A DNA stretch of 64,000 nt. Origin: a bacterium. Its GTDB lineage: Bacteria > Patescibacteriota > Minisyncoccia > UBA6257 > UBA9933. The first letter of the stretch is position 1; each line of letters starts with the position of its first letter. Of the stretch, positions 22,881 to 24,137 are shown piece after piece. The notes beneath the pieces are model-generated. The model had not been told where the DNA came from. It saw only the letters and a program-made list of their open reading frames with translations, and did no database searches. The stretch covers positions 71,189 to 135,188 of the forward strand of contig JAUYBE010000006.1 of NCBI GenBank assembly GCA_030693235.1, written 5' to 3'. Both the position numbers and the translations under genes were made by a program.

Positions 22881-24137
22881 ATGAATGAATCACTTAATCT
22901 CACAACCCACCCCGAGAGAGAGAGAGAGAGAGAGAGAGAGAGTAAGCGCGCGCCGGCGATAAGCTTACTCGGTTTCACCCTCATTGAACTCCTCATCGTC
23001 ATCGGCATTCTCGCGGTTTTAGCCGTAGCCGTTGTTTTGGTTCTCAACCCGGCCCAACTTTTCAAAGAAGCCCGGGACAGCAAAAGATTATCTGAACTTC
23101 AAACAATCCACAAAGCCCTTGGCCAATATCAAGCAGATGGCAAAACTTATTTGGGCGAAACCGACAAGGTTTATGTCTCAATTCCCGATTCTTCAACCAC
23201 CTGCGCCAATTTAGGCCTGCCTTCGCTTCCTACTGGTTGGGAATATCGCTGTTCCAGTTCAGACAATTATCGCAAAGCTGACAACACTGGCTGGGTGCCA
23301 GTACCTTTCACTTCTATTTCCTGGGGCTCAAACTTATCAATCCTTCCAATTGACCCTGTTAATACCACTTCTACTGGCAATTACTATACCTATGTGGTTG
23401 GCGGTTCTTGGGAAATGACCGCTCTTTTTGAATCTGATAAATATGCTGACAAAGCCATCAATGACGGTGATGCCTATCCTGGTGTCTACAGTTTGAGAAC
23501 CTCAACTTCTCCTTTGACTCCCGGCATCAGAGATAAAGGAATGGTGGGTTATTGGAAGTTTGATGAAGGCAGCGGGACAACGGCTTCTGATTCATCAGGA
23601 AATAGTAAAACCGCATCATTTATTGGATCTCCTAGTTGGGTTACGGGTAAGATTGGGACAGGAGTTAATACCGGTAACACGGTGAGCGATTATATTAATG
23701 CTCCTAATGTGAGCTTGGGATCAACTTGGACTGCAACTGCCTGGTTTCAATATCCCTTAACCTCAACTGGCTCATCATGGTGGACATTGTTCCGAGGTAA
23801 TGCAGGAGACCATCAAGTAATTGTGGAAAGAAAAGTTTCACAGCTTGGAATGTATGATAACGTTGGCGGTACCGGTTTTAGGGGTACCGGTTTTTATATG
23901 ACTTCCCTTTCAACCGGTTGGCATCATATAGCTGTAACGGGAAGCGGAGGAAAACAAAATTTTTATATTAATGGTAATTATGTTGGTCAGTCAGATAAAC
24001 AATCAACGACAGATATAAAATCAATCGGTAATCATTGGGGTGGTAGTCAAAATTGGGGTACAGTTGACGAAGTCCGCATTTATAACAGAGCTTTATCAGC
24101 GGCTGAAATTATGGCGATCTACAACGCCACCAAATGA
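22881..24137 (+). CDS. Type IV pilin-like protein. It has a prepilin N-terminal methylation/cleavage motif (G|FTLIELLIV) and a C-terminal LamG (concanavalin-like) domain. A (GA)14 repeat lies in the leader
   Basis: GFTLIELLIVIGILAVLAV is a class III signal. The C-terminal VDEVRIYNRALSAAEI is typical of LamG jelly-roll. Confidence 0.75.
   Translation: MNESLNLTTHPERERERERESKRAPAISLLGFTLIELLIVIGILAVLAVAVVLVLNPAQLFKEARDSKRLSELQTIHKALGQYQADGKTYLGETDKVYVSIPDSSTTCANLGLPSLPTGWEYRCSSSDNYRKADNTGWVPVPFTSISWGSNLSILPIDPVNTTSTGNYYTYVVGGSWEMTALFESDKYADKAINDGDAYPGVYSLRTSTSPLTPGIRDKGMVGYWKFDEGSGTTASDSSGNSKTASFIGSPSWVTGKIGTGVNTGNTVSDYINAPNVSLGSTWTATAWFQYPLTSTGSSWWTLFRGNAGDHQVIVERKVSQLGMYDNVGGTGFRGTGFYMTSLSTGWHHIAVTGSGGKQNFYINGNYVGQSDKQSTTDIKSIGNHWGGSQNWGTVDEVRIYNRALSAAEIMAIYNATK

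Follow-up and report, generated by a model that had tools for sequence, protein, structure and literature searches.

Does a long dinucleotide repeat inside the leader of a pilin gene act as an on/off switch in an uncultivated Patescibacterium? Phase variation through simple repeats is a textbook strategy of host-adapted pathogens, and bacteria of the candidate phyla radiation (CPR) are believed to need pili to attach to host cells. The question is raised by a GA repeat in a 64-kb stretch of contig JAUYBE010000006.1 (assembly GCA_030693235.1, positions 71,189 to 135,188; hereafter the window), where the repeat lies near the start of a gene for a type IV pilin-like protein with a LamG-type lectin module. 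A first-pass annotation made from the letters alone had proposed a phase-variation switch in the pilin leader, and that proposal is supported by the length of the tract, its forced translation, polymorphism in 2-nt steps at homologous or analogous loci, and intact out-of-frame open reading frames (ORFs). The reading of the GA tract as a slippage-driven switch on a pilin-adhesin is given a probability of roughly 0.8; the evidence from the class of such loci is strong, and that from this very locus is indirect. The element in question is the following:

22914 to 22942, plus strand: (GA)14.5 tract, the proposed slippage site, read as ERERERERE within the leader

The tract is real. It is a perfect 29-nt run of (GA)14 with a final G, returned by Tandem Repeats Finder as one period-2 array of 14.5 copies with 100% matches, and retranslation of ORF 22881..24137 gave an identical product, so the coordinates and translation in the first-pass annotation were correct. 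A regular-expression scan of the 64-kb window found no other dinucleotide repeat of at least five units and no G or C homopolymer of at least eight, and the tract-plus-motif pattern had 0 matches in dinucleotide-preserving shuffles of the window. The working cut-off for candidate dinucleotide switches was at least six units, a threshold taken from PMC6321876; at 14.5 units the tract is far past this limit for frequent slippage. Indels in the tract would shift the frame, as its unit is 2 nt and it is translated upstream of the functional part of the protein.

The gene on the plus strand (22881..24137) encodes a product of 418 aa that reads MNESLNLTTHPERERERERESKRAPAISLLG/FTLIELLIV..., with the slash marking the predicted cut, and an identical 418-aa protein is annotated in NCBI (MDP3014987.1). 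The product has two parts:

22881 to 22973, plus strand: class III leader peptide, 31 aa, ending in Gly31 (GGT, 22971..22973) before the predicted prepilin-peptidase cut (TIGR02532, Pfam N_methyl)
22974 to 24137, plus strand: mature modular pilin, with an N-terminal hydrophobic helix (FTLIELLIVIGILAVLAVAVV...) and a C-terminal lectin module; stop codon at 24135..24137

TIGR02532 (prepilin cleavage/methylation motif) matched residues 31-51 with 21.3 bits against a cut-off of 16.3, and Pfam N_methyl scored 19.9 over the same residues, just under its cut-off of 21.2. The features of a class III prepilin are present around ...SLLG/FTLIELLIVIGILAVLAVAVV: a hydrophilic leader ending in Gly, F at +1, Glu at +5 and a hydrophobic helix. 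A Pfam match to Laminin_G_3, a concanavalin A (ConA)-like lectin module, covers residues 268-410 (nt 23682..24110; E 1.8e-17). The combination of this domain with the prepilin motif places the protein among the modular pilins treated by Raynaud et al. (PMC8179133), whose examples include PilC of Streptococcus sanguinis with its ConA-like lectin module and proteins from CPR bacteria, and who argued that such pilins are probably tip-exposed adhesins. The S. sanguinis modular pilins share with the window protein an N-terminal pilin module, a class III signal peptide and a grafted ConA-like/LamG module. No repeat switch is described in PMC8179133, and the leader of S. sanguinis PilB has seven residues, whereas that of the window protein would owe its 31 aa to the switch that it houses. 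Homologs of the pilin number 1,913, are mostly 395-420 aa long and have the same architecture; its named relatives come from Ca. Paceibacterota, Wolfebacteria and Taylorbacteria. Named relatives of the window's trmD come from Ca. Wolfebacteria or the "Patescibacteria group", and SecA of the same genome clusters at no less than 90% with Patescibacteria SecA. Rfam and tRNA scans returned nothing at or adjoining the locus.

Four elements define the start region of the gene:

22842 to 22869, plus strand: promoter-like TTGAGA-16 nt-TATAAT, the best consensus match in 22600..25000 (11 of 12 positions)
22881 to 22883, plus strand: ATG1, in the pilin frame at the present n=14 (translation; annotation of MDP3014987.1)
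22885 to 22887, plus strand: ATG2, in the +1 frame, which meets no stop within the tract; in the pilin frame at n=13, 10 or 16
22943 to 22962, plus strand: stop codons that close the two shifted frames, TAA 22943..22945 (immediately behind the tract) and TAA 22960..22962

Between the end of the -10 box (22864..22869) and ATG1 lie 11 nt, transcription is predicted to start near 22876, and the tract begins 33 nt after ATG1. A role as a transcriptional, promoter-spacer simple sequence repeat (SSR) was rejected, as the tract lies 45 nt past the -10 box and inside the ORF. ATG 22881 is the sole upstream ATG, GTG or TTG in the pilin frame without an intervening stop. Between the tract and the G/FTLIE cleavage site there is no ATG, GTG or TTG in the pilin frame, the sole in-frame near-cognate codon there being ATA 22959; therefore, every ribosome that makes the pilin must read through the tract. 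A Shine-Dalgarno or untranslated-region (UTR) element was also rejected, given the lack of a downstream canonical start and the finding of Shine-Dalgarno-like sequence at only 5 of the 41 gene starts of the window. A TATAAT box 7-13 nt before the ATG is seen at many window genes, trmD included (e.g., 22127, 27600, 39538, 42204, 52548 and 55861). This layout suggests that leaderless or very short-leader mRNAs are widespread in this genome, and the pilin start, with a short or absent 5' UTR, therefore looks normal here.

The mechanism proposed is slipped-strand mispairing at (GA)14.5: replication slippage would add or remove GA units, 2 nt each, and so form a contingency locus controlling translation of the LamG-lectin type IV pilin-like protein. 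The two ATGs lie four bases apart and lead into the tract in different frames, so the repeat number would determine the product. Frame outcomes were simulated for n = 9 to 20. Full-length prepilin is predicted from ATG1 at n=14, 11, 17 or 20 and from ATG2 at n=13, 10, 16 or 19 (MNHLISQPTPRERE...SKRAPAISLLG/F...), with a leader start that differs but would be equally hydrophilic; the mature protein would be identical in both ON states. At n=12, 15, 18 or 9, only short abortive peptides of 16-29 aa are predicted, ending at TAA 22943 or TAA 22960, and this one of the three length classes would be OFF. The first-pass annotation had taken 22881 for the only upstream ATG, which holds for the pilin frame but not overall, given the second ATG at 22885 in the +1 frame. 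Its prediction that gain or loss of one GA unit abolishes the pilin stands for a gain (predicted OFF) but not for a loss, which is predicted to leave the gene ON via ATG 22885. Its statement that no alternative in-frame start follows the repeat was borne out. ATG2 is presumed to be used in translation, and the two-start, three-state detail of the switch is rated at slightly better than an even chance.

The strongest evidence comes from comparable loci. Leaders were inspected in the best 120 of the 1,913 pilin homologs; most are 4-12 aa long, within a full range of 4 to 88 aa. Two of these 120 carry a dinucleotide tract at the equivalent place, (GA)8.5 in L001 and (CT)10.5 in L002, the latter encoding (LS)n. 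Both have a second ATG in another frame, and in L002 the only ATG is out of frame. The wider class was surveyed by scanning public collections for (GA)7 followed, after 17-47 nt, by a sequence coding for F-T-L-[IV]-E, a pattern that matched at least 120 stretches in metagenomes and 90 in genomes (one genome per species). Among the matches listed, 178 of 214 continue into a hydrophobic pilin helix, a feature outside the pattern; that 181 of 233 GA tracts precede a prepilin motif is no unbiased enrichment, since the loci were chosen by that pattern. The tract-in-leader layout was found in more than 160 prepilin genes of Patescibacteria, Planctomycetaceae and rumen metagenome-assembled genomes (MAGs). 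Eight of the genomes are labelled Patescibacteria (two Paceibacterota, one Parcubacteria, one each from Brennerbacteria, Doudnabacteria and Daviesbacteria, and two "Patescibacteria group"). Two Planctomycetaceae MAGs hold about 16 and 27 pattern loci each, and rumen MAGs labelled Rickettsiales about 20.

Reading frames were counted at 139 unique prepilin loci with enough upstream sequence. An in-frame ATG between the tract and the cleavage site was present at only 7 of them (13 when GTG and TTG are included). The coding sequence was in frame with an upstream ATG at 40 loci, and 94 had one or more ATGs in another frame only. Out-of-frame copies are intact: in the rumen family, the median ORF length was 325 aa in 25 OFF copies vs. 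329 aa in 3 ON copies. Recoding of UGA was tried as the cause of the absent in-frame starts in this family and rejected, as reading TGA as sense restored no starts. The strictest test of polymorphism used pairs of loci whose flanks (400 nt before the tract and 600 nt behind it) show an ungapped identity of no less than 97%. Tract length differed in 9 of 16 such near-identical pairs, always by a multiple of 2 nt (2, 4, 6, 10, 12 or 22); in one pair (L065 and L107), the flanks are 100% and 99.5% identical and the tracts are 17 and 15 nt long.

The family of LamG pilins nearest the window protein bears on the role of two starts. At twelve loci, a 5' cassette that hardly varies (promoter-like box, ATG1, ATG2 13 nt further on, leader) stands in front of mature parts that are only 52-87% identical, and the tracts measure 15, 17, 19 or 21 nt. 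A tract of 17 nt puts ATG1 in frame, and one of 15 or 21 nt does so for ATG2. Of the four loci with 19 nt, three have neither start in frame, and the fourth (L066) has a 1-nt upstream deletion. All 12 full-length GA-tract homologs of the mature window pilin (E 1e-44 to 1e-83), like the window itself, have ATGs in two frames. Across families, this arrangement was found in 10 of 31 against 3.0 expected from composition. Nine of the 13 LamG-pilin loci (the 12 homologs and the window) are ON, near the two-thirds expected for a two-start switch sampled randomly, and the OFF loci include those of Ca. Brennerbacteria (L152) and Patescibacteria (L207) genomes.

Two further groups have large prepilin-like families behind a conserved 5' cassette. 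In the Planctomycetaceae MAGs JAITOZ01 and JAITQJ01 (among L125-L209), the cassette reads AGGAGA-ATG, about 19 codons and (GA)n, then G/FTLVELL...LPAVQAAREA; the rumen MAGs labelled Rickettsiales (L130-L213 and L006-L123; Ga0247610/Ga0310694) have families of the same kind sharing a 5' cassette. Nearly all members are out of frame, with 1 of 8 and 3 of 28 ON, respectively, which is below the one-third expected by chance, and many contigs stop at these cassettes. A separate observation concerns leader length: many LamG-pilin homologs (P0047, P0052-P0054, P0063, P0080, P0094, P0098, P0100 and P0119) have long leaders that open with a truncated copy of the motif (SFTP... or SFTLIELLVVTP...), and the full G/FTLIELL follows 20-35 aa later. 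The pattern resembles an insertion whose target was duplicated within the DNA of the cleavage motif.

Evidence at the window locus itself comes from an independent assembly. A Logan contig of SRR13727537 (SRR13727537_5905, L214) matches window 19403..22936 (3,534 nt) at 100% and ends 23 bases into the 29-base tract. Logan assembles at k=31 and drops singleton k-mers (PMC12424806), so a tract of one length, 29 nt, would not be expected to branch the graph. The break is what a co-occurring 23-nt allele (three units shorter and also ON) would produce, which is suggestive only. Look-ups of trmD and the KH protein led to the one Logan contig that ends in the tract, a look-up of rpsB gave no match, and a look-up of the exact pilin product found no second copy of the locus. 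SRR13727537 is a public read set in which heterogeneity of tract length is measurable.

Several points weigh against a switch here. The other end of the Logan contig lies in ordinary unique sequence, so low coverage accounts for its break equally simply, and no right-hand Logan contig was found, the two guessed 5'-truncated products (starts at 22920 and 22908) having no record. A flank pattern with variable gap gave 0 matches in metagenome contigs, and no strain relative of the locus was found; the nearest trmD relative is 78% identical, so that there are no orthologous pilin loci to compare. The polymorphic orthologous pairs come from pilin families other than LamG, and the LamG-family copies that vary are paralogs or strains, with mature parts merely 52-87% identical. 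A second ATG at the window locus, taken alone, has a chance probability of 0.08. This is the single such SSR visible in 64 kb, and neither pilus machinery nor a prepilin peptidase turned up in a Pfam scan of 24 window ORFs. That the pilin is expressed, processed and shown on the cell surface is inferred.

The genomic setting of the gene was examined by comparison with its nearest relatives, and the following features were delimited:

22840 to 24884, plus strand: inserted cassette of 2,045 bp with promoter-like site, switch, pilin gene and trailing remnants (homology break against L215)
24309 to 24381, plus strand: decayed copy of the last 24 pilin codons, 74% identical, inside the trailing part of the cassette
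24885 to 24913, plus strand: remnant of the old trmD 3' end (KAIDDGNKI and stop), which holds a promoter-like site for rpsB; right edge of the insertion

Gene order in the two nearest relatives (L215 and L216) is SMC-rpsP-KH-trmD-rpsB-tsf, with trmD directly before rpsB. Homology to L215 ends at window position 22839 and restarts at 24885, which correspond to L215 positions 3661 and 3664; as the break points are only 2 nt apart in L215, 22840..24884 is an insertion. It replaced the last trmD codons. Along with its own promoter-like site, whose -35 box begins at 22842, the cassette brought the two start codons, the GA tract and the pilin gene, followed by some 750 nt of trailing sequence. The trmD-rpsB junction looks like an insertion hotspot, because a third relative (L217) holds a different insertion there, of 3.1 kb and with an rve integrase. 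Smaller "IYNATK" remnants lie at 24482 and 24708. The copy at 24309..24381 was considered as one half of the template/variable pair of a diversity-generating retroelement (DGR), the other half being the pilin 3' end (24066..24138). This was rejected: the mismatches fall at all kinds of base and are not adenine-specific, so the copy is not a DGR template repeat, and no reverse transcriptase was among the 24 ORFs scanned. The 790-nt gap after the pilin (24138..24928) also contains a 38-nt palindromic region (24212..24249), short repeats and, at 24585..24890, TCG(C/T)TCGCAATGACA in four copies, often with AGATTGCTT in front; the left insertion edge has a similar GAGATTCTT (22844). These elements are possibly recombination or cassette-boundary sequences.

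Other explanations of the tract can be weighed against these data. It is improbable that the tract is a neutral microsatellite in a static, low-complexity leader, a harmless (ER)n with no switching function. The present allele is in frame, no heterogeneity was found at the locus (the flank-pattern search gave 0 matches), and removal of the leader at G31/F would leave it weakly constrained; homolog leaders range from 4 to 88 aa. However, a static leader predicts relatives that are mostly in frame, and 94 of 139 have their ATGs only in another frame while keeping full-length ORFs. Near-identical orthologs differ by 2-nt rather than 6-nt steps, and the (CT)n version, giving (LS)n, indicates conservation of the DNA repeat rather than of the peptide. 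The possibility that the gene is a decaying passenger, brought in with a recent cassette insertion and heading for loss with its repeat under no maintained function, is considered very unlikely. The gene does sit within the 2,045-bp insertion, another relative has a different insertion at this junction, and the trailing 750 nt of the cassette are full of gene remnants; the ORF, on the other hand, is intact, its domains score normally, and no defect or frameshift is present in the promoter, the start codons or the tract.

Equally little weight is given to an untranslated regulatory tract, with translation beginning at the non-canonical ATA 22959 and tract length tuning expression without a frameshift. 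This ATA is in frame, would give a leader of ordinary length (5 aa, (M)SLLG/F), and follows GA-rich sequence that is loosely Shine-Dalgarno-like. Against it, the ATA lies 16 nt past the tract end, too far for Shine-Dalgarno spacing in a window where just 5 of 41 starts have such a sequence; no in-frame ATG, GTG or TTG follows the tract; the -10 box stands 11 nt before ATG1 as at other window genes; and a canonical in-frame start beyond the tract is present at only 13 of 139 loci of the class. A sequencing or assembly artefact, whether a chimeric join or collapsed low-complexity reads, is scarcely credible. Simple repeats can attract misassembly, and one assembly breaks inside the tract, but the leader (with its ATG), the tract and the pilin body form one continuous frame, the independent assembly agrees base for base over its 3,534 nt and into the tract, and the architecture recurs in hundreds of independent assemblies.

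In some CPR-type genomes, GA tracts occur alongside a second source of variation. Four loci (L135, JAKABL010000001.1; L141, JAJYDL010000006.1; L016; L055) encode a GA-tract pilin of about 470 aa followed by a 115-nt repeat and a reverse transcriptase (RT; Pfam RVT_1 at 2e-15, with IGNLTSQ and YMDD motifs). The repeat copies of L135 and L141 differ at 13 and 17 positions, all of them (13/13 and 17/17) at adenines of the RT-proximal copy, the template repeat, and the variable region is the C terminus of the GA-tract pilin. Adenine-only mismatches next to an RT identify these two as DGRs. The RT gene of all four loci is itself interrupted by (GA)n of 23-60 nt, which puts it out of frame in three of four, and the arrangement looks like a phase-variable diversifier.

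The closest documented analogue of the window locus is oipA (hopH) of Helicobacter pylori, which, along with sabA and babA, is treated in PMC10564699; oipA has a CT dinucleotide repeat in its signal-peptide coding region that varies by slipped-strand mispairing. At both loci, a surface adhesin gene carries a dinucleotide repeat that follows the start codon and precedes the signal-peptide cleavage site, and slippage at oipA shifts the frame, as proposed for the window, with many repeat-number alleles, ON and OFF, among strains. The unit is CT in oipA and GA in the window, although the homolog L002 uses CT, and the oipA product has a Sec signal peptide in place of a class III leader cut by prepilin peptidase. 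H. pylori is a pathogen, whereas the window organism is an uncultivated Patescibacterium. Unlike oipA, the window has a second ATG in another frame that is predicted to rescue one of the shifted frames.

Alternative starts have a precedent in lic1 of Haemophilus influenzae, a translational switch in which (CAAT)n is preceded by several ATGs in different frames and more than two expression states result. As in the window, the starts lie upstream of the repeat; lic1 differs in its tetranucleotide unit and its role in lipopolysaccharide modification, and the window has a dinucleotide, a pilin leader and a single mature protein in both predicted ON states. Repeats in the leader-peptide coding regions of surface or pilus-associated adhesins are also found in Neisseria, as (CTCTT)n in opa and poly-G in pilC, and genes of this type form multigene families with a conserved 5' end and most copies OFF at any time. 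The Planctomycetaceae and rumen MAG families resemble these mostly-OFF families; the window, by contrast, shows a single copy and no family, and the repeat unit and protein families are different. Promoter-spacer SSR switches are a further type, exemplified by the TA repeats that control hif pili in H. influenzae. The Neisseria porA poly-G tract is another example (PMC3639595). In these systems, too, simple repeats change the expression of pili or surface proteins, but the porA and hif tracts lie between or beside the -35 and -10 boxes and act on transcription, whereas the window tract is 45 nt past the -10 box and within the ORF. No report of a repeat switch on pili of CPR bacteria, Patescibacteria or Saccharibacteria was found in the open-access literature searched, which agrees with the remark in the first-pass annotation that such variation is not commonly noted in CPR-like organisms; one paper on "hypervariation" in CPR bacteria concerns a 9-mer coding repeat. 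The repeat-switch mechanism is thus already known; what appears unreported in the literature searched is the host group, the use of a prepilin leader as target, the GA unit and how widely such loci occur.

Elsewhere in the window, a defence island (44171..51879) encodes type I restriction-modification HsdM, HsdS and HsdR, with a Shedu protein (SduA_C domain, 47657..48760) whose gene interrupts the hsdS-hsdR pair; immediately upstream of the island are a RadC gene (43506..44174) and a gene for a Fic/RhuM protein (42204..43208). The 23S rRNA (6788..9735) and 5S rRNA (5730..5845) genes are on the minus strand about 940 nt apart, no 16S gene was found anywhere in the window, and RNase P RNA maps to 55392..55695. 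Short tandem repeats with units of 7-10 nt crowd the intergenic regions, often as two different adjoining arrays (e.g., 17281..17350, 18290..18391, 19084..19144, 33565..33646 and 53455..53838).

A broader reading of these data is that a portable switch cassette (a promoter/start region, often with two ATGs in different frames, followed by (GA)n and a class III leader) has been recruited repeatedly across phyla, including Patescibacteria, Planctomycetaceae and rumen MAGs, to gate pilin-like surface proteins, with the GA device also interrupting the DGR RT in some CPR-type genomes. This is put forward tentatively, at slightly under even odds. If it is true, uncultivated ultra-small bacteria would run layered contingency on their attachment organelles: on/off switching by slippage, diversification by DGRs, and on/off switching of the diversifier. 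The survey pattern offers a simple search that finds hundreds of such loci, including mostly-OFF families and DGRs with a repeat-bearing RT. For the lectin pilin of the window, the switch would make the presence of an adhesin-type pilin on episymbiotic or ultra-small cells stochastic and reversible, and it may serve as bet-hedging against whatever targets or depends on the pilin, be it phage, host surface or the need to attach. Populations would then be mixtures of attaching and non-attaching, or phage-sensitive and phage-resistant, cells. Such a switch would bear on how episymbiosis and phage pressure are read and also on gene-content calls from MAGs, because frame-shifted copies are probably switched OFF rather than pseudogenes.

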